A DNA stretch of 64,000 nucleotides from Alistipes sp. (lineage in GTDB: Bacteria > Bacteroidota > Bacteroidia > Bacteroidales > Rikenellaceae). The translations under genes and the position numbers were made by a program. Location: the NCBI GenBank assembly GCA_017517705.1, contig JAFWYM010000024.1, forward strand, positions 9,800 through 73,799, written 5' to 3'. Below the pieces are notes generated by a model. The model ran no database searches and was not told where the DNA came from. It saw nothing but the letters and a program-made list of their open reading frames with translations. This document shows, piece by piece, positions 12,221-33,267 of this stretch (positions are counted from its first letter, which is position 1; each line of letters begins with the position of its first letter).

Positions 12221-13297
12221 ATGGGCAAGCGATTAGGTGTGCGCCAATGGATTGCGCTCAAGCTATTCAAGAAGTTACGACAGATACGTCGAGAGGAGCA
12301 TGTGCTCAACACGCTCTTCTGGGAGTGTACGTTGCGCTGCAACCTCAAGTGCCGCCACTGTGGTAGCGACTGCACGGTAGACCCCGCGATGAAGGATATG
12401 CCTGCCAAGGATTTCTTTCGTGTCTTAGACAACGAGATTACGCCCCACGTAAACCCCAATAAGGTGCTCATCATCCTCTCGGGTGGCGAGGTTCTCGTGC
12501 GCAAGGATCTCGAGGAGATAGGCATCAACCTCTACCGTCGTGGCTATCCGTGGGGTATGGTCACAAATGGTCTCGGCCTCACGCGCGAGAGGCTCAACTC
12601 GCTCATACGCTCGGGTCTGCACTCCATAACAGTGTCGCTCGATGGCTTCGAAGAAGAGCACCTCCACATACGTCAACATCGCGATAGCTTCGCACGTGCC
12701 GTAGAGGCTGTGCGCATGATCTCGGCAGATAAGGAGCTCGCCTCGGATGTGGTCACCTGCGTGACTCCCGCCCTTATGCCTAAGCTCGCGGAGTTCAAGG
12801 AGTTTCTCTACTCGCTCGGTGTGCGTCGCTGGCGACTATTCACCATCTTTCCCGTAGGCCGTGCCGCTGCCGATCCCACGCTGCAACTCAACGACGAAGA
12901 GTTTACCGCGCTGATGCAGTTTATCGAGACAACACGCAAGGAGGGACGTATCATGGCGTCGTACGGCTGCGAGGGCTTCCTTGGTGGCTATGAGATGCGT
13001 GTGAGGACAAACCCCTTTGAGTGCTATGCGGGCGTTGGCGTGGCGTCGATACGCGTCAATGGCGACATCTCGGGATGTACGAGCGTGAGGGCCAACTTCA
13101 CGCAGGGCAACATCTACCGCGACAACTTCTGGGATGTATGGCAAAACCGCTTTGAGAAGTTCCGCAACCGCGCGTGGGCTAAGCGTGGCAAGTGCGCCGA
13201 GTGTAAGATGTGGCAGTACTGCGAAGGTAACGGCATGCACCTCTACGACGACGATGGCAACCTGCTGGTATGCCACTATCAGCGACTACGCAGATAG
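12221..13297 (+). CDS. Radical SAM/SPASM enzyme, rSAM/lipoprotein system (TIGR04133-like; rSAM-B)
   Basis: CNLKCRHC, SGGE, MVTNG; SPASM-type CYAG...GDISGC and CAECKMWQYCEGNGMH; lies directly after three lipoprotein genes. TIGR assignment is from memory, not searched. Confidence 0.88.
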   Translation: MGKRLGVRQWIALKLFKKLRQIRREEHVLNTLFWECTLRCNLKCRHCGSDCTVDPAMKDMPAKDFFRVLDNEITPHVNPNKVLIILSGGEVLVRKDLEEIGINLYRRGYPWGMVTNGLGLTRERLNSLIRSGLHSITVSLDGFEEEHLHIRQHRDSFARAVEAVRMISADKELASDVVTCVTPALMPKLAEFKEFLYSLGVRRWRLFTIFPVGRAAADPTLQLNDEEFTALMQFIETTRKEGRIMASYGCEGFLGGYEMRVRTNPFECYAGVGVASIRVNGDISGCTSVRANFTQGNIYRDNFWDVWQNRFEKFRNRAWAKRGKCAECKMWQYCEGNGMHLYDDDGNLLVCHYQRLRR

Positions 13298-13412: not shown

Positions 13413-13647
13413 TCATTTTACCCCAAAAATGAGTCATTTCACGGAAATTTTCGGGATAAGTTGCTATTTTTTGCAATTTATTCACTATCTTGCACCCGAA
13501 TATGGTGCGTCCGAGCGTTGATACTTAGGGGCGAGTTGCAGTCGGGCTGTGGCTGTGGCCGTCACCGTGGGGGGCTCTACCTCAAGATAACACTTGGCAA
13601 ACCATTGAGCATAAGGATATTATTAACTTAAAACTTCTTATAGGATT

Positions 13648-14130
13648 ATGAAAAAGATTATGTTTTTGATGCTCGCCCTCTTCGTGGGCTTCAGCGCATC
13701 GGCACAGTCAATGCCCGACGTAAAGGTTGAGAACCAGGAGGGTAAGATTATCTCTACACGCGACTTGGTGGATGGCACACCTATGATCATCTCATTCTGG
13801 TCGACAACGTGCAAGCCCTGCATCATGGAGCTTAACGCCATCAACGACAACCTCTACGACTGGCTCGAGGAGGTAGACATGAAGGTTGTTGCCGTATCTG
13901 TTGACGATGCACGTGCCATCAGCCGTGCCCGCGCGATGACACAGGGTCAGGGCTGGGACGACTATACATGTATCTACGACAAGAACCAGGACTTCAAGCG
14001 CGCCATGAACGTGAGCCTCACGCCCCACACCTTCATCGTTGACGGCAAGGGTAACGTGGTATACTCTCACTCGGGCTACACTCCCGGTAGCGAGCAGGAG
14101 CTCTTTGAGAAGATCAAGGCGTTGAAATAG
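13648..14130 (+). CDS. Exported TlpA/AhpC-TSA-like thioredoxin-fold disulfide reductase
   Basis: Signal peptide (ASA-Q), SFWSTTCKPC (CxxC), cis-Pro region LTPHTFIVD. Confidence 0.9.
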   Translation: MKKIMFLMLALFVGFSASAQSMPDVKVENQEGKIISTRDLVDGTPMIISFWSTTCKPCIMELNAINDNLYDWLEEVDMKVVAVSVDDARAISRARAMTQGQGWDDYTCIYDKNQDFKRAMNVSLTPHTFIVDGKGNVVYSHSGYTPGSEQELFEKIKALK

Positions 14131-14204
14131 TTGCAATGCGAGCAGATGTGGCAGCCGAGTGTTGCCACCTCTGCTTTGAACATTAATCGAAAAAACTTTA
14201 CGGA

Positions 14205-15905
14205 ATGAAGAAATTTTTACTCACATTTAGCATAGTTGTTGCATCTATGTTCGCCGCCGAGGAGGCTGCAGCGCAGATCAAGGCCGGCGAGGGTCAGGTG
14301 TCGATATCGTTGGAGAGTAACAATATCTTGTACTTCAACGACAAGAACCTCATAGAGTTCAACAGCAAAAACGAGCGCGAGAAGCCCTTTGGATCTATCG
14401 ACTACCTAAAGGTTGACTACTCGAAGGGACGCTTCTCGGCAGGTGTGCAGATTGACGGTTACCTGCCCTCACTCAGCGGTTACGACATCACCGAGTACCA
14501 AAAATCGCAGCTTCAGGGCTTTGGCGATAAGGCTACGCCCGTAACGGCATTCTTCACCAAGTATATCCAGTGGGAGGATCAGAACTGGGGTGTGCGCCTT
14601 GGCGATATATACGACCAGTTTGGCAATGGACTCATCTTCCGTGCATACGAGGAGCGCGCCTTGGCCTTCAACAATGCGTTGGCAGGTGCCCGCGCATACT
14701 ACAACCTCAACAACTATTTTAACGTGAAGGTTGTTGCCGGTATGCCTCGCTTGTACGATATGCGCGTACCCAACTGGATCTATGGTGCCGACCTCTCGCT
14801 CTCGCTCTCGGATATCATCGGCTGGAACAATGGCTTGGTGTCGGTTGAGGGTAGCTACGTGGGTCGCAACCAGAAAGATGCAACAAAGTTGGGATTGGAG
14901 AGCGACTACCTCAATATGCTCTCTGGCCGCCTAAACTTCGAGACTGCAGGTTTCACCTTCCGTGGTGAGTATGTGGCAAAGTTGAACGAGGATATCCACA
15001 ATCGCATGTGGCCGGCAAGCAAGGGTCACGTGGCACACGTCGACCTCGGCTACAACTACAAGCGTTTCTCAGCCTCTGCCACATTCCGCTATCAGAAGAA
15101 CATGAACACCCCGATATTGGTCTCGATGAATAACCTCTATGGCGGTAATGTTATGAGCTACATTCCGTTGCTCACACGCCAGCATACATATATGCTTGCT
15201 AACCTCAATCCCTACCGTGGCACTACGGTATTTACCGCGGGTGAGATTGGCGGTCAGGCCGACGTCTACTACTCGTTGCGCAACAAGAAGGCTCGTGGCA
15301 AGTATTGGAACTTCCACGCCAACATCTCTGTGTTTAACACCATAAAGCACAAGATGAATGGTAAAGGCAAAACGATTGATGGCCGTAATGCCTGGATCGA
15401 CTTCAACTTCGATGTTGAGCGACAGTGGAACAAGAGCCTCAAGACAACATTCCTCTACTCATTCCAGCGTTGGGACGAGTCTCTCAACCACTGGGACTCG
15501 GAGGCGATCTCTGCAGAGTATTGCGCTTCGCACATCTTCGTGGGCGATGTAACATATAAGTTTAACAAGAAGCACTCGTTGCGTGTCGAGGCTCAGTACC
15601 TTGCCTCTGACGACTACGAGGGCGACTGGGTAGCAGGCTTGGTAGAGTATAACTTTGCACCTATGTTCAGTTTCTACGTTAGCGATATGTGGAACTGCGA
15701 AAAGATGGAGGCGAACTACAACTCTAACACCGACAAGAACTACCTACTCCACTACTATCAGGTGGGTATGACATTCACACACAGCCACTACAGAGCACAG
15801 TTGGCATACGGTCGTAATCGTGCCGGTTACGTATGTTCGGGAGGTGCATGTCGCTACCAGCCCGCATATACGGGTGTAAACCTTGCGCTAACTATTACAT
15901 TCTAA
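14205..15905 (+). CDS. Outer-membrane beta-barrel protein (DUF6029-like) with a C-terminal CSGGAC motif
   Basis: Signal peptide, alternating amphipathic strands, terminal Phe (NLALTITF), GYVCSGGACRYQP near the C-terminus. Family name from memory. Confidence 0.75.
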   Translation: MKKFLLTFSIVVASMFAAEEAAAQIKAGEGQVSISLESNNILYFNDKNLIEFNSKNEREKPFGSIDYLKVDYSKGRFSAGVQIDGYLPSLSGYDITEYQKSQLQGFGDKATPVTAFFTKYIQWEDQNWGVRLGDIYDQFGNGLIFRAYEERALAFNNALAGARAYYNLNNYFNVKVVAGMPRLYDMRVPNWIYGADLSLSLSDIIGWNNGLVSVEGSYVGRNQKDATKLGLESDYLNMLSGRLNFETAGFTFRGEYVAKLNEDIHNRMWPASKGHVAHVDLGYNYKRFSASATFRYQKNMNTPILVSMNNLYGGNVMSYIPLLTRQHTYMLANLNPYRGTTVFTAGEIGGQADVYYSLRNKKARGKYWNFHANISVFNTIKHKMNGKGKTIDGRNAWIDFNFDVERQWNKSLKTTFLYSFQRWDESLNHWDSEAISAEYCASHIFVGDVTYKFNKKHSLRVEAQYLASDDYEGDWVAGLVEYNFAPMFSFYVSDMWNCEKMEANYNSNTDKNYLLHYYQVGMTFTHSHYRAQLAYGRNRAGYVCSGGACRYQPAYTGVNLALTITF

Positions 15906-15933
15906 CGAACAATAATTTAACCTGATTATAACA

Positions 15934-17022
15934 ATGAAAATCACAAAGTTTTTGGCGCTTATATGCGCTATGGCAACCCTCTTTGTTGGTTGCGAGGGTA
16001 ACGGCGGTGACGAGAACTCAGCCACAGGCAATGCGGTACTTACCGCCGATAAGGATGTTGCCGTTATGGGCGAGCCCATCACCTTCACCGTGACAAGCGA
16101 GGGTGCGGATGTTACTGCCGAGGCTAAGATATACAACAAGGCAACATACAAGGAGGTGAGCAACCCTTTCGTGAGTGATGTAGATGGTAAGTATGAGTTC
16201 TATGCCGTATATGGCACGTCTATTACGAAGAGCATCGAAATCTCTGTTGTACCCTCAATCCCCGTACTCCCTGAGGATGAGGAGCCCACAAATACGACAT
16301 TCAACCACCGCATTCTCTTGGTTGACCACACGGGTACGAAGTGTGGCTATTGCCCACAGATGATGGCTGCACTCCGCAAGGTTGCTGCCGACGACAATTA
16401 TCACGACAAATTCTACGAGGCTATGGCGCACACCTACAATAGCGACGACCCCTCGTGGTCGCGCTCTGCAGAGGTTGTCACATCGCACTATGGTAGCCTT
16501 ATTAATGGTTATCCCTCGCTCACATTCAACTTCTACCACCCTATTCCGGGCGAGAGAAATGACAAGAGCATCAAGTTGCAGATCGACGCATTGTGGAAGG
16601 CTGATGGTGCCGATGCAGGTGTGATGGCAGCCGCGACAGGTGGCAATACCATGGTAGCTGTGAAGGCCCAGGTTAAGGCAAAGGTAGCCGGCGACTATCG
16701 TGTAACAGCTTGGCTGTTGGAGGATAATATCTATGCGCAGCAAGCTGGCACTACAGACGAGTCATACTACACACATAACAACTCTATCCGCCATATTGCC
16801 ATATCTAATCCTATCACAGGCTTCGACCTCGGCACCATCGAGGCCGGTGCAACAGCCGAGAAGGAGATGGCCTTGGAGATTCAGAGCCTAAAGTGGGCAA
16901 ACGAGAACCTCAAGGTTATGGTTATCGCCACGGTATACAATAGCAGCACCAAAAATTATGACGTAGCGAACATCGCCATCTGCCCCATCAACGGCTCGGT
17001 TAAGTACGACTACAAGAAGTAA
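15934..17022 (+). CDS. Omp28-related thioredoxin-like outer-membrane lipoprotein 1
   Basis: Lipobox FVGC; ILLVDHTGTKCGYCP, GYPS cis-Pro, WLLEDNI, HNNSIR. Confidence 0.85.
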   Translation: MKITKFLALICAMATLFVGCEGNGGDENSATGNAVLTADKDVAVMGEPITFTVTSEGADVTAEAKIYNKATYKEVSNPFVSDVDGKYEFYAVYGTSITKSIEISVVPSIPVLPEDEEPTNTTFNHRILLVDHTGTKCGYCPQMMAALRKVAADDNYHDKFYEAMAHTYNSDDPSWSRSAEVVTSHYGSLINGYPSLTFNFYHPIPGERNDKSIKLQIDALWKADGADAGVMAAATGGNTMVAVKAQVKAKVAGDYRVTAWLLEDNIYAQQAGTTDESYYTHNNSIRHIAISNPITGFDLGTIEAGATAEKEMALEIQSLKWANENLKVMVIATVYNSSTKNYDVANIAICPINGSVKYDYKK

Positions 17023-17063
17023 TAAGTATAATCAGAATAAATCACTTAAAACTATTTATAACA

Positions 17064-18230
17064 ATGAAAATCACAAAGTTTTTCGCACTTATGTGTGCAG
17101 CTGCAGCCTTCGCTTTGGCAGGCTGCGAGGGCATCGAGGGTCCGTCTAATGACGGCGACAACAATGGTGGCAACAACAATGGCGGCAACAACAATGGCGG
17201 TGGAAACACTACCAGCGACCTCGTCCTCTCGGCTGAGGAGACTACGATAGCTCTTGGCGAGGATATTGTTCTCAACGTAACCGAGGGCGGTGTAGATGTT
17301 ACATCGGCAAGTGACTGCGTTATATACGACTACAAGACTATGGAGCCTGTCACAGGCAGCACACTGACACCCGACTCAACTGGTGTATACTCATTCTTCG
17401 CAACTAAGGGAAGCAAGTCATCTAACACGTTGTATGTAACCGTTTTGGCTAATGTTCCCACTCTTCCCGAGGATACAGATGCTGCAAATACCAAGTTCAA
17501 CCACCGTATCCTTATTGTAGACCACACGGGTATTAACTGTGGTAACTGCCCTAATATGATGGATAATCTCCTTGCATTGCACGATTCAGCGTGGAAAAAC
17601 AGCTACAATGAGGTAGCTTGCCACGGTGGTGGTTACGCTAATGGCGACCCCGCACGATCAGCCGCCGCAGCTGTTGTCGACGACTTCTACACGCCTAGTG
17701 GATACCCTGTGCTCAACGTTAACTTCTACAATGGCGTTGTAGAGAACTATTCAGGAGATTACTTCTTAGAGCTTATAGGCGAGAAGTTTACACAGCTTAT
17801 CAAGAAGGATGGTGCTGATGCAGGTATCGCTATTGCAACTACAGGAGATTCCACGACTGTATATGCATCGGTAGCAGTTAAGGCAGCTGTTGAGGCTGAG
17901 TACAAGGTTACTGCTTGGTTGCTCGAGAACAACATCTATGGTAATCAGTATGGCGCTTCTGAGGACTACCACAGAATCTACAACCACGCGTTGCGCAATA
18001 TTGGCGGACCATACTCTAAGTCAGACCTCTCAGGTAACTCTGTTGGCATAATCAAGGCCGGTGAGACCGCCGAGACAGGTTTCGAGATGGAAGTAAAATC
18101 TGGCTGGAAGCACGAGAATATGGAAGTACTTGTAATCGTCAGCGCTAAGAATAAGTCTAACCGCTGGGAGGTTGTTAACACCGCTTTATGCCCTGTTAAC
18201 GAGTCTGTAGGCTTCGAGTACCTTCAGTAA
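17064..18230 (+). CDS. Omp28-related thioredoxin-like outer-membrane lipoprotein 2
   Basis: Lipobox LAGC; ILIVDHTGINCGNCP, SGYP, WLLENNI, YNHALR; tandem paralog of 15934-17022. Confidence 0.85.
   Translation: MKITKFFALMCAAAAFALAGCEGIEGPSNDGDNNGGNNNGGNNNGGGNTTSDLVLSAEETTIALGEDIVLNVTEGGVDVTSASDCVIYDYKTMEPVTGSTLTPDSTGVYSFFATKGSKSSNTLYVTVLANVPTLPEDTDAANTKFNHRILIVDHTGINCGNCPNMMDNLLALHDSAWKNSYNEVACHGGGYANGDPARSAAAAVVDDFYTPSGYPVLNVNFYNGVVENYSGDYFLELIGEKFTQLIKKDGADAGIAIATTGDSTTVYASVAVKAAVEAEYKVTAWLLENNIYGNQYGASEDYHRIYNHALRNIGGPYSKSDLSGNSVGIIKAGETAETGFEMEVKSGWKHENMEVLVIVSAKNKSNRWEVVNTALCPVNESVGFEYLQ
17154..17198 (+). repeat. 15-bp in-frame tandem repeat (3 copies) encoding a Gly/Asn linker
   Basis: GGCGACAACAATGGT, GGCAACAACAATGGC, GGCAACAACAATGGC, encoding GDNNG-GNNNG-GNNNG. 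Confidence 0.9.
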
Positions 18231-18283: not shown

Positions 18284-18317
18284 GAGTGCTATCCCTTTAG
18301 GATAGCACTCCTTTTTT
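18284..18317 (+). terminator. Intrinsic terminator of the TlpA-barrel-Omp28 operon
   Basis: 11-bp stem GAGTGCTATCC / GGATAGCACTC followed by CTTTTTT. Confidence 0.85.
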
Positions 18318-18366
18318 ATATATCGCGACTACAACATTGTGTAATCGTGACAGAAACATTACAATC

Positions 18367-18763
18367 AGTTCCTTCGACTGCGCTTGCGCTCCGCTCAGGA
18401 TGACATGGTGAGGACTACCATGTTTTCGTAATGTCATTCTGAACGAAGTGAAGAATCTGGAAGCGACGATGGAACAAAGAGGCAAAGTGTCCTCGCGGGC
18501 AGATCCTTCGACTCCGCTAACGCTCCGCTCAGGATGACAAGAGGGGGGGCGCTCAGGATAACATGGGGGGCTCCGCTCAGGATGACATGGCGAGGGCTAC
18601 CATGTTTTCGAAATGTCATTCTGAACGAAGTGAAGAATCTGGAAGAGACAATGGAACAAAGAGGCAAAGTCTCCTCGCGGGCAGATCCTTCGACTCCGCT
18701 AACGCTCCGCTCTGGATGACAGGGGGGGCTCAGGATGACAAAGGGGGACTCCGCTCAGGATGA
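18367..18763. repeat. REP/BIME-like palindromic cluster 1 with a 182-bp tandem duplication
   Basis: Arms TGTCATTCTGAACGAAGTGAAGAATCT (ATGTCATT at 18431 and 18613, period 182) and AGATCCTTCGACTCCGCTAACGCTCCGCTCAGGATGACA, plus several GCTCAGGATGACA half-copies. Confidence 0.85.
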
Positions 18764-18942
18764 AAAAGCGCACTATAGGAACTCACGGTAAACCGTAGCT
18801 CCTATCACCTCCCAAACATCGAGGGTATTAAGATAGGGTATTGACGCGAAAAATGGCGTCGAGAGATAGATTGCTCACTAACACAGCAACCTCTTATGCA
18901 AAGCTGCGAGGGACACGCCGCAGAGGCTCCAAACTAAACAAT

Positions 18943-19947
18943 TTAGAGCTCGAAAGATGACTTCTCAGGAAACATCCCCCTCAAAAACGCAACCATACGG
19001 TCACGATCGACATCCGAAGAGTACTCGCTATCGTTCATACAGAACATCAGGGGGTTATACTTCTCGAACTCCTTCTTATAGTCGGGGCTCACAAGCTTGA
19101 TCCAACGCGAGTCGGCAGCATAGTGTCCACTCATAAGTGCCTTGACAAGGTCCCCGGGCGTATTGATGCGATTGTAACGCCCCACCTTGCGAAGCTCAGC
19201 CTGACCCGTGGCTACGACATAGTAGCTCACAAAGCAGCGCTGCATATCCTTATTGTTACGAAAGCGGCGATACGACGTACGCTCCCACGCATCCTTCATC
19301 TGTGCCACACAGTACTCGTAGTCGCTCTTACGATAAGCATCGAAGTTATGGTGTGGAGCATGGCATATAAGCTTACCCCACTTCTCATTCACGAGCTTCT
19401 GCATGTGGAAGAGCACACGCGCATAGTTGCCTCCCGTGCGTGCGCGGCGACGATTCATACGAGCACCCATAAGTCGCACAATGGGCGAGCCGTCGGGCTT
19501 GAAGAAAACGTCCGGTGTGGTGGGCGCACCAAAGAAAGTGTCGTCGTTGCCGAAGATGAAGTGCTCGGCGAGACCCGGAATCTTATATATGCAGCTCTCG
19601 ATGGCGTGCGACGAGAATACGGGCAAGGCCTCAGCAGGGAGGATGTCCTTATGGTCGACGATGCTAATCTTGGGATGGTTGAGATTCAACCACTTGGGGT
19701 GTTGCGAGTCGGTGATAATGTAGATATGGTTGACCCATGGAGCATACTTCTCCACAGAGCGTAACGAGAAGAGCAACTCATCGTTATCTCTCCAGCGCGA
19801 CTCACTGCAGCTCTGCGGTGAAGGCCCACTCTTGGGTCTGGCCGGCATATAACGATCGCGCTTCTCTCTCCACTCCGGATCACTACCATCTACCCACGCA
19901 TATACGAGGTCGATGGGAAAATCTATACGCTCGTCGGTCTCTACCAT
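18943..19947 (-). CDS. Stealth-family hexose-1-phosphate transferase (capsular polysaccharide phosphotransferase-like)
   Basis: CR1 IDLVYAWVDGSDPEW; CR2 RWRDNDELLFSLRSVEKYAPWVNHIYIIT; FSSHAIES, FGNDD, CMND. Confidence 0.9.
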   Translation of the reverse strand: MVETDERIDFPIDLVYAWVDGSDPEWREKRDRYMPARPKSGPSPQSCSESRWRDNDELLFSLRSVEKYAPWVNHIYIITDSQHPKWLNLNHPKISIVDHKDILPAEALPVFSSHAIESCIYKIPGLAEHFIFGNDDTFFGAPTTPDVFFKPDGSPIVRLMGARMNRRRARTGGNYARVLFHMQKLVNEKWGKLICHAPHHNFDAYRKSDYEYCVAQMKDAWERTSYRRFRNNKDMQRCFVSYYVVATGQAELRKVGRYNRINTPGDLVKALMSGHYAADSRWIKLVSPDYKKEFEKYNPLMFCMNDSEYSSDVDRDRMVAFLRGMFPEKSSFEL

Positions 19948-32670: not shown

Positions 32671-33267
32671 ATGGCAATGCAAACAAAACACAAGAAGCGT
32701 GGCTCGACACTCACGCTCATCCTTATGCTCATAGTACTCCTTGGCCTTGTGGTAGCGATAATCTTCTGGCCCGTGGAGGCCAAGGCTTCACCCGAGCCTG
32801 CGCTCACCGAGCAGGACGACCTCGAGGAGACGACACTCGTACGCACGGGCGACATAGCCCCCGACTTTACGGTTAAGATGACCGACGGCCGCAAGCTGAC
32901 ACTCTCGGCACTGCGCGGCAAGGTTGTCCTGGTGAACTTCTGGGCCACGTGGTGTCCTCCCTGCCGTCAGGAGCTGGCACACATGCAGACGGGCATCTTA
33001 GATCCCTTTGCGGGCACAGATCTTGTGGTGATACCTATCTCGCGCGGCGAGACACGCGCGACGGTTGAGTCATTCATCCACAAGATGGGCTACACCTTCC
33101 CCGTAGGTATCGACGAGAATAAGTCGATATACCTCAAGTATGCCACCAACTACGTACCTCGCTCGTTCGTCATCGACCGCGAGGGTAAGGTAGTATACAG
33201 CGTCGCAGGCTACGACGAGACTGTCGCTCGCGAGATCAACGAGGCCATAACCAACGCCCTACGCTAA
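32671..33267 (+). CDS. Membrane-anchored TlpA/ResA-like disulfide reductase
   Basis: Single N-terminal transmembrane helix; APDFT, VLVNFWATWCPPC, VPRSFVID. Confidence 0.9.
   Translation: MAMQTKHKKRGSTLTLILMLIVLLGLVVAIIFWPVEAKASPEPALTEQDDLEETTLVRTGDIAPDFTVKMTDGRKLTLSALRGKVVLVNFWATWCPPCRQELAHMQTGILDPFAGTDLVVIPISRGETRATVESFIHKMGYTFPVGIDENKSIYLKYATNYVPRSFVIDREGKVVYSVAGYDETVAREINEAITNALR

Follow-up and report, generated by a model that had tools for sequence, protein, structure and literature searches.

What might a periplasmic redoxin, an outer-membrane beta-barrel and two thioredoxin-like lipoproteins do together? This question is raised by four adjacent genes at positions 13648-18230 of a stretch of 64,000 nucleotides (called the window here) from contig JAFWYM010000024.1 of an Alistipes sp. 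assembly (GCA_017517705.1). A previous reading, made from the sequence alone (the sequence-only reading), had proposed that electrons pass from the redoxin through a cysteine pair of the barrel to the lipoproteins at the cell surface. We have followed up this proposal computationally, and we read the locus as a single instance of a self-contained envelope thiol-redox module that has three components and is phylum-wide. It brings together in one unit three invariant cysteine pairs: one in a periplasmic thioredoxin fold, one in a loop of the barrel and one in a surface-targeted thioredoxin fold.

A recurring unit with three cysteine pairs

The four open reading frames are co-directional and have the following features:

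13648-14130, + strand: exported redoxin of the TlpA/ResA type (160 amino acids; signal peptidase I site between ASA and Q; WSTTCKPC)
13810-13821, + strand: codons of the redoxin active site CKPC (by re-translation)
14205-15905, + strand: DUF6029 outer-membrane beta-barrel (566 amino acids; signal peptide; C-terminal Phe; PF19494)
14610-14678, + strand: loop 3 of the barrel, residues 136-158 (motif Y-x-Q-F-G-x-G-L..R..E.R; conservation 0.80)
15825-15866, + strand: loop 12 hairpin of the barrel, between strand 23 and the last strand (C544/C549, then R550 and P553)
15834-15851, + strand: CSGGAC, barrel residues 544-549 (by re-translation)
15934-17022, + strand: lipoprotein 1 of the Omp28/HBP35 type (362 amino acids; lipobox FVGC followed by EGNGGDE; lipid Cys20)
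16342-16353, + strand: CGYC of lipoprotein 1, residues 137-140 (by re-translation)
17064-18230, + strand: lipoprotein 2 of the Omp28/HBP35 type (388 amino acids; lipobox LAGC followed by EGIEGPSNDGD; lipid Cys21; Gly/Asn-rich linker)
17538-17549, + strand: CGNC of lipoprotein 2, residues 159-162 (by re-translation)

A cysteine pair had been claimed for each of the four products, and the positions of CKPC, CSGGAC, CGYC and CGNC agree on re-translation. Besides the pair, every one of the four proteins contains at least one unpaired cysteine.

Does this arrangement recur, as the sequence-only reading had stated? We searched 401 Bacteroidota genomes with Pfam models and found DUF6029 in 104 of them (about a quarter), almost always as a single copy. 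The neighbourhood of the barrel gene was analysed in three sets of loci. Set 1 contains loci from the Pfam search, for which partners were detected by BLAST only. Set 2 comes from named genomes and was partly found via the cysteine motif itself; it covers Rikenellaceae, Bacteroides, Porphyromonas, Odoribacter, Prevotellaceae, Flavobacteriaceae, Weeksellaceae, Chitinophagaceae and Sphingobacteriales. Set 3 consists of the most divergent DUF6029 matches of the Pfam search, which were chosen against the motif bias.

Set 1 (29 loci): redoxin directly upstream of the barrel in 24 of 29; adjacent thioredoxin-fold partner with a CxxC motif in at least 16
Set 2 (80 loci): redoxin directly upstream in 72 of 80, with a median gap of about 16 nucleotides; adjacent partner in 77 of 80
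Set 3 (20 divergent loci): redoxin directly upstream in 19 of 20; adjacent partner in 20 of 20

Thus the recurrence of the gene set in Bacteroidota is borne out by co-occurrence and neighbourhood alike, with the redoxin upstream in about 90% of 100 loci. The barrel cysteines are even more constant: C-x2-G-x-C near the C-terminus is present in 30 of 30, 80 of 80 and 20 of 20 barrels (130 in total), many of which have no other cysteine, so that the C-terminal pair picked out in the sequence-only reading has turned out to be invariant. As the same motifs are seen in about 100 independent loci, the pattern of the window locus is far beyond chance.

The layout varies between orders. In Bacteroidales, including the window, redoxin, barrel and partner follow each other in this order on the same strand; in Flavobacteriales, the redoxin-barrel pair and the partner are divergently transcribed. 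When all other open reading frames of the 100 loci were clustered, we found no family in more than 11 loci and thus no fourth gene of the module. One locus, L128, seemed to be an exception, with a barrel that lacks the cysteine motif and a partner that lacks CxxC. Reading it in three frames, however, gave CTNGVC in another frame of the barrel and, in the partner, CGPC immediately ahead of a masked stretch of N; this is a frameshift or an assembly error and no true exception. A rare duplication of the module is seen in L040, a Tidjanibacter metagenome-assembled genome (MAG), with two DUF6029 barrels within 6 kb (L040:268-2453 and L040:6001-9211); a redoxin of its own accompanies one of them, and an Omp28-like lipoprotein of 1028 amino acids is encoded before the other.

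Across the sample of 401 genomes, DUF6029 and Omp28 occur together in 69 and are both absent from 287; 35 genomes have only the barrel and 10 only Omp28, all of the latter being weak matches. The barrel-only genomes belong, in 31 of 35 cases, to family f32, in which the partner has been replaced. Here the third gene encodes a Redoxin-fold protein with CPHC that is unrelated to Omp28 and is either a lipoprotein or carries a type IX tail. Examples that follow a DUF6029 barrel are:

L131:4229-5053: f32-type CPHC partner
L132:5951-6487: f32-type CPHC partner
L133:5988-7347: f32-type CPHC partner

Since a different thioredoxin fold is found in the same slot with the same two targeting devices, the module would seem to need a redox-active fold at the surface and not the Omp28 domain itself. 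The gene neighbourhoods mark the redoxin-barrel pair as the constant core of the module, with the surface partner as its variable output.

Redoxin, barrel and surface partners

The first gene product had been taken for an exported TlpA, and its signal peptide, its CKPC motif and its matches to Pfam and to ResA structures all agree with an exported redoxin of the TlpA/ResA type. The Pfam matches are AhpC-TSA (3.8e-18), Redoxin (7.6e-17) and Thioredoxin_8. On the other hand, the protein stays below the curated NCBIfam cut-offs for ResA (56.1 bits against 170), TlpA (41.9 against 230) and DsbE (37 against 123). Because these cut-offs are missed, it is best classified from its sequence as a TlpA-like protein of a separate subfamily, orthologous to no named enzyme. 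Its best structural match by far is PDB entry 2m72, a solved but uncharacterised thioredoxin-like protein (E = 4.7e-41), with ResA structures following at about 1e-9. All redoxins of the module contain W-C-x-P-C, in the form CKPC in Bacteroidales and C[VAT]PC in Flavobacteriales, and the orthologues likewise have signal peptides.

The second product matches PF19494 (DUF6029) with 492.7 bits (cut-off 27; 1.7e-147) over model positions 1-538. We built an AlphaFold2 model of it on an alignment of 80 sequences; the mean predicted local distance difference test score (pLDDT) is 90.6, the predicted template modelling score (pTM) is 0.86, and DSSP assigns 24 long strands. The connections between the strands alternate between short turns (mostly of 2-4 residues, with two of 7 and 9) and long loops (of 7-47 residues). 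In the model this is the standard pattern of an outer-membrane barrel, in which both ends are predicted to be periplasmic. The model contains neither a plug nor periplasmic domains, the mature protein opening directly with strand 1, and there is no TonB box in the barrel. The Foldseek matches of the model are all large barrels of a generic kind (LptD, PapC/FimD and TonB-dependent transporters), at template modelling (TM) scores of 0.36-0.46 and 8-10% identity, and no solved relative is among them.

The two cysteines of the barrel lie on a small hairpin, formed by the DSSP strands 541-545 and 548-552 around a Gly-Gly turn. By topology, following the usual rule, this hairpin would be extracellular loop 12, the last one; its placement rests on the order of the DSSP strands, on pLDDT and on the topology rule. 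A model of the barrel alone had been suggested as a way to see whether CSGGAC lies in the lumen. What we obtained is a high-confidence model with 24 strands and a position of CSGGAC on the extracellular half by topology.

Conservation is unevenly distributed over the barrel. The two segments with the highest values are loop 3 (0.80) and loop 12 (0.76), both above every membrane strand, and the least conserved segments are loops 1, 2, 5, 6, 8, 9 and 11 (0.20-0.35). Q138, G140, G142 and R146 are invariant in loop 3. Loop 7, with 47 residues, has no secondary structure and yet a pLDDT of 82-90. Loops that are so conserved or so confidently placed usually fold into the lumen, as in porins, and we infer that those of DUF6029 may do so too. 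With 24 strands and a tilt of about 40 degrees, a rough geometric estimate gives a C-alpha diameter of about 44 Å, and an empty lumen of this width could admit a domain of the size of thioredoxin. Since loop 3 and the cysteine loop are the most conserved of the outer loops and the others the least, these two may well form the functional centre of the barrel.

In both lipoproteins the lipobox leads into an acidic linker rich in Gly, and the C-terminal part matches Pfam Omp28 (PF11551; 68.8 bits and 6.7e-19 for lipoprotein 1, 76.2 bits and 3.6e-21 for lipoprotein 2; cut-off 34.9); they share 41% identity. The NCBIfam model lipoprot_Omp28 (NF033782) is missed by both (49.9 and 43 bits against a cut-off of 150), and Omp28_seleno also stays below its cut-off. 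By sequence they are best described as divergent relatives of Omp28 with an added immunoglobulin-like (Ig-like) domain. The AlphaFold2 model of lipoprotein 1 (pLDDT 92.9) consists of a lipid anchor, a disordered linker, the Ig-like domain (31-106), a thioredoxin-like alpha/beta domain with CGYC and a C-terminal beta-sandwich. Its sole strong Foldseek match is HBP35 (5y1a; E = 1.3e-13, TM 0.62 on the target), and a profile of the lipoprotein family finds 5y1a at 3.9e-23 and Omp28 2r2c at 3.5e-20, with ordinary thioredoxins from about 1e-7. The lipoproteins are thus thioredoxin-fold proteins, as had been supposed, and are related to HBP35. In an alignment of 67 lipoprotein sequences only the lipid Cys, T133, C137, C140 and P194 are invariant, and P194 is likely to be the cis-Pro of the thioredoxin fold. 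The middle residues of the CxxC motif are diverse among the partners (GY, GN, GW, VN, PN, GP, TF and others). The nearest Alistipes loci (L033-L039) likewise have both Omp28 paralogues. In an Alistipes MAG, the barrel is followed by a lipoprotein of 998 amino acids (L044:4997-7990) that combines three Omp28 domains and four CxxC motifs in one chain.

We also considered partners with selenocysteine, as NCBIfam contains a model for an Omp28-related selenoprotein and there is an in-frame TGA in several Omp28 matches beside barrels. Reading TGA as U in L134, L135, L136 and L008 gave no U-x-x-C in a thioredoxin context in these four loci, and the TGAs are ordinary stops or frame changes; the question has no bearing on the window.

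Where are the partners located? The surface-export signal of Bacteroidetes lipoproteins is a pair of neighbouring acidic residues at about +3 to +5 (PMC5080379). The sequence-only reading had pointed to acidic residues just after the lipid Cys in both window lipoproteins. They are indeed present, at +2/+7/+8 in lipoprotein 1 and at +2/+5 in lipoprotein 2, and fit the published signal only loosely. Among 87 partners with a lipobox, 83 have at least one acidic residue within six positions after the lipid Cys and 52 have at least two; many orthologous partners show canonical acidic export signals, for example SDDD, SSDD or SDDDD. Furthermore, 23 of 35 longer Omp28-like proteins adjoining redoxin-barrel pairs carry a Por_Secre_tail domain, for which neither window lipoprotein has a Pfam match. 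Type IX tails on paralogues and the position of HBP35 at the cell surface speak for the surface location of the partners that had been assumed.

The four genes had also been described as an operon closed by one terminator, and the open reading frames and a strong hairpin with a run of T are found as described. The signals of the unit are:

18284-18320, + strand: intrinsic terminator closing the four-gene unit (stem of 11 base pairs with 6 GC pairs; T-run)
14148-14168, + strand: weak hairpin of 8 base pairs in the gap between redoxin and barrel (consensus scan; poor T-tail)

The hairpin of the terminator (18284-18310) is GC-rich and begins 54 nucleotides past the last stop. The weak hairpin may be a partial attenuator, and its significance is uncertain. 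The gaps within the set are 74, 28 and 41 nucleotides, and it is this spacing alone that suggests co-transcription of the four genes. A promoter scan upstream of the unit found no TAnnTTTG of the Bacteroidetes type, with one near match at 13465, and matches of the sigma-70 type there are at chance level.

Upstream, a radical SAM gene ends at 13297, 350 nucleotides off, and is part of a different system. Downstream, a protein of the Stealth family (CR1-CR4; a capsule phosphotransferase family) is encoded convergently at 18943-19947 on the - strand and is not kept beside the module elsewhere. Positions 18366-18770, 3' of the terminator, contain two direct repeats of 159 nucleotides that are 94% identical and 182 nucleotides apart; these include seven copies of a unit of about 28 nucleotides centred on CTCCGCTCAGGATGACA. 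Some Wzi-like barrels show HHpred similarity to DUF6029, which is the only mention of DUF6029 that we found in the literature (PMC9603273). A role in polysaccharide export was rejected, as the gene neighbourhood lends it no support: the Stealth gene does lie downstream, on the other strand, but polysaccharide genes do not recur in the 100 loci.

The host genome, from an Alistipes-like member of the Rikenellaceae, has an assembly of 2.0 Mb at 96% completeness, and the nearest homologues of the barrel are proteins of Alistipes MAGs (64-72% identity). It contains one DUF6029 gene and two Omp28 genes, all at this locus. A DsbD_TM domain is found elsewhere in the genome in a frame of 636 amino acids, and such a DsbD-type membrane protein could supply the TlpA-like redoxin with electrons. 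There are seven Redoxin-family matches in total. A second TlpA-like protein in the window, membrane-anchored and with WATWCPPC, is encoded at 32671-33267 between pyrH-like and frr-like genes; it has no barrel or Omp28 neighbour and is a separate envelope redoxin.

Possible roles of the module

What could hold a redoxin, a barrel and a surface thioredoxin fold together so consistently? In the reading that we favour, reducing equivalents would enter the periplasm via a DsbD-type protein and reduce the TlpA-like redoxin, would then cross the outer membrane at the barrel to reach the surface lipoproteins, and these would act on targets at the surface or outside the cell, by reduction or by disulfide exchange. 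The barrel would be the required physical link in one of two ways: either a cysteine site in the lumen, made by loop 3 and loop 12, takes up electrons from below and gives them off above, or the barrel holds the thioredoxin domain of the partner within reach of TlpA. That there is a redox link from periplasm to surface which needs the barrel seems to us only slightly short of an even bet. The more specific claim, that the barrel cysteines themselves are the relay (the C-x2-G-x-C hairpin and loop 3 in a plug-less lumen, with TlpA below and the surface thioredoxin fold above), is plausible, though well short of an even bet.

Relays of the DsbD type alternate between cysteine pairs in thioredoxin folds and pairs in other folds, and the pair of the N-terminal domain of DsbD sits on a beta-hairpin. 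The order of redoxin, barrel hairpin and thioredoxin-like partner fits this alternation by analogy. Of the sequence-only interpretation as a whole, the recurring unit, the exported redoxin and the surface partners with a thioredoxin fold have held up, while its comparison with DsbD should be taken as an analogy of logic and not as homology.

Several points weigh against a relay through the barrel. It is genomic evidence alone that suggests a coupling of the three proteins, and this evidence would suit either direction of electron flow, the surface partner being reduced or oxidised. As the cysteine pair is placed on the extracellular half, a periplasmic TlpA could reach it only through an open lumen. 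The surface exposure of the window lipoproteins is suggested by their relatives, their own signals being a loose fit. The variable middle residues of CxxC would be consistent with varied redox potentials but also with metal or haem binding. Finally, kin genomes are not independent, so that the co-occurrence counts overstate the support; they describe a pattern and are no statistical test.

The main rival makes the barrel a dedicated outer-membrane translocon or assembly platform for the adjoining thioredoxin-like proteins. TlpA would then be a maturation factor that keeps the cysteines of cargo and barrel in the right state during transit, with no steady flow of electrons. To our knowledge no flippase for the surface lipoproteins of Bacteroidota has been identified, which counts in favour of this explanation, and a barrel of 24 strands with no plug, whose nearest solved folds are the PapC/FimD ushers and LptD (which houses a lipoprotein), would suit the task; this Foldseek likeness is generic, however, with TM below 0.5. 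Further support comes from Porphyromonas gingivalis, where the small protein PorA reaches the surface without the type IX machinery (PMC7712824). Going by the numbering of the locus tags, the order in this species is PorA (PG2172), Omp28 (PG2173), the uncharacterised PG2174 and the thioredoxin-domain protein PG2175. Since PorA is independent of type IX secretion and stands next to the trio, the DUF6029 barrel would be an obvious candidate for its route. Yet this adjacency to the module rests on locus-tag order and not on DNA, and HBP35 is not surface-exposed without type IX secretion (PMC7712824). Moreover, general routes of export are already open to partners that bear a type IX tail or a lipobox, and the linkage to the redoxin-barrel pair persists nonetheless; a translocon also leaves both the invariant cysteine hairpin of the barrel and the invariant dedicated redoxin unexplained. 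We consider a translocon to be unlikely.

Somewhat less likely still is a role in nutrient capture, in which the ligand of the lipoprotein is haem, a metal, cystine or some other disulfide and enters through the barrel, a passive channel with a purely structural disulfide; TlpA would reduce this ligand after import or maintain the cysteines that bind it in the reduced state. Pairs of a barrel and a surface lipoprotein (SusCD, BtuBG) are the standard uptake design of Bacteroidota, which speaks for this role, and 8bmx is among the Foldseek matches of the barrel; the DUF6029 barrel, however, has neither a TonB box nor a plug. HBP35 binds haemin and is required for growth when haemin is scarce (PMC2907840), and variable CxxC middle residues would suit ligand binding. 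On the other hand, the replacement of the partner by a plain Redoxin-fold CPHC protein points to redox catalysis and not to a specific ligand pocket, and the cysteine loop of the barrel is conserved beyond the needs of a structural staple.

That the lipoproteins face inward and serve a periplasmic-only redox quality control or assembly of the barrel or of other outer-membrane proteins is improbable: the loose fit of the two window lipoproteins to the export signal, the listing of PG2175 as periplasmic and the presence of PG2173-PG2175 in vesicle proteomes (where orientation is undefined) would agree with it, but many orthologous partners have canonical acidic signals or type IX tails, HBP35 and the Paraprevotella protein 00502 (see below) act at the surface, and the conserved sites of the barrel lie in loops of the extracellular side.

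If a redox link from periplasm to surface does exist, it would fill a gap. We know of no way in which a Gram-negative cell delivers protein-borne reducing power past its outer membrane. Bacteroidota nonetheless display thioredoxin-like proteins at their surface, such as HBP35 in haem acquisition and an Omp28-related Paraprevotella protein in the destruction of host trypsin. If a conserved redoxin-barrel pair supplies such proteins with reducing power, this would account for their recycling and would add a new function to the outer-membrane barrels. It would also give a function to DUF6029, which is found in human gut Alistipes and Bacteroides and in the oral pathogen P. gingivalis. Having only three parts and occurring in genetically tractable species, the module is directly testable.

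Comparison with known systems

The components of the module belong to known families, the barrel being a domain of unknown function (DUF), and we found no paper that describes the combination of redoxin, barrel and Omp28. How does it compare with systems that have been studied?

The closest solved relative of the lipoproteins is HBP35 of P. gingivalis, a cell-surface protein with CxxC-dependent thioredoxin activity in vitro, measured as insulin reduction (PMC2907840). Like the window lipoproteins, HBP35 (5y1a) consists of a thioredoxin-like domain followed by a beta-sandwich, and its CGYC-P is that of lipoprotein 1. It differs in that it has a type IX C-terminal domain instead of a lipid anchor, shares only about 19% identity and has no reported TlpA-like or barrel partner; its studied role is haemin binding.

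Besides HBP35, the only functional work on an Omp28-related surface protein concerns 00502 of Paraprevotella clara, which is secreted by the type IX system and recruits disulfide-rich host trypsin at the surface, thereby promoting its autodegradation (PMC9477747). This case shows that the Omp28-related family can matter in host interaction. However, 00502 is far larger, with multiple Ig domains and a type IX tail, the window contains no gene like it, and it is likened to the window proteins by annotation and not by sequence; PMC9477747 draws no link to thiols.

P. gingivalis also encodes PG2175 (2m72) and the Omp28 protein PG2173 (2r2c), which match the window redoxin (4.7e-41) and the lipoprotein family (3.5e-20), respectively. 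PG2173, PG2174 and PG2175 have all been detected in outer-membrane vesicles. Judging from these matches, PG2173-PG2175 probably represents this module in a species that can be cultivated, the difference being that P. gingivalis has one Omp28 and the window two paralogues with an extra Ig-like domain. We found no reported function for the trio in the literature.

As to the barrel, the PapC/FimD ushers, which have 24 strands, and LptD/LptE, which has 26 and encloses a lipoprotein, have a similar number of strands and a partner in or above the lumen, and the function of LptD depends on disulfides too. Unlike these, DUF6029 has no plug and no N- or C-terminal periplasmic domains, and it shows no sequence homology to either.

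The redoxin is of the same exported thioredoxin-fold type with W-C-x-P-C as in the pathways that lead from DsbD or CcdA to TlpA, ResA or CcmG. These pathways end in the periplasm, at cytochrome c, at Cu centres or at DsbC/DsbG, and no envelope reductive pathway known to us crosses the outer membrane or uses a beta-barrel. In this comparison the module would carry an envelope thiol-redox pathway on to the outer membrane, and it would be categorically new if the barrel relay were proved. It would then be the first protein thiol relay across a bacterial outer membrane, that is, a counterpart of DsbD built on a beta-barrel.

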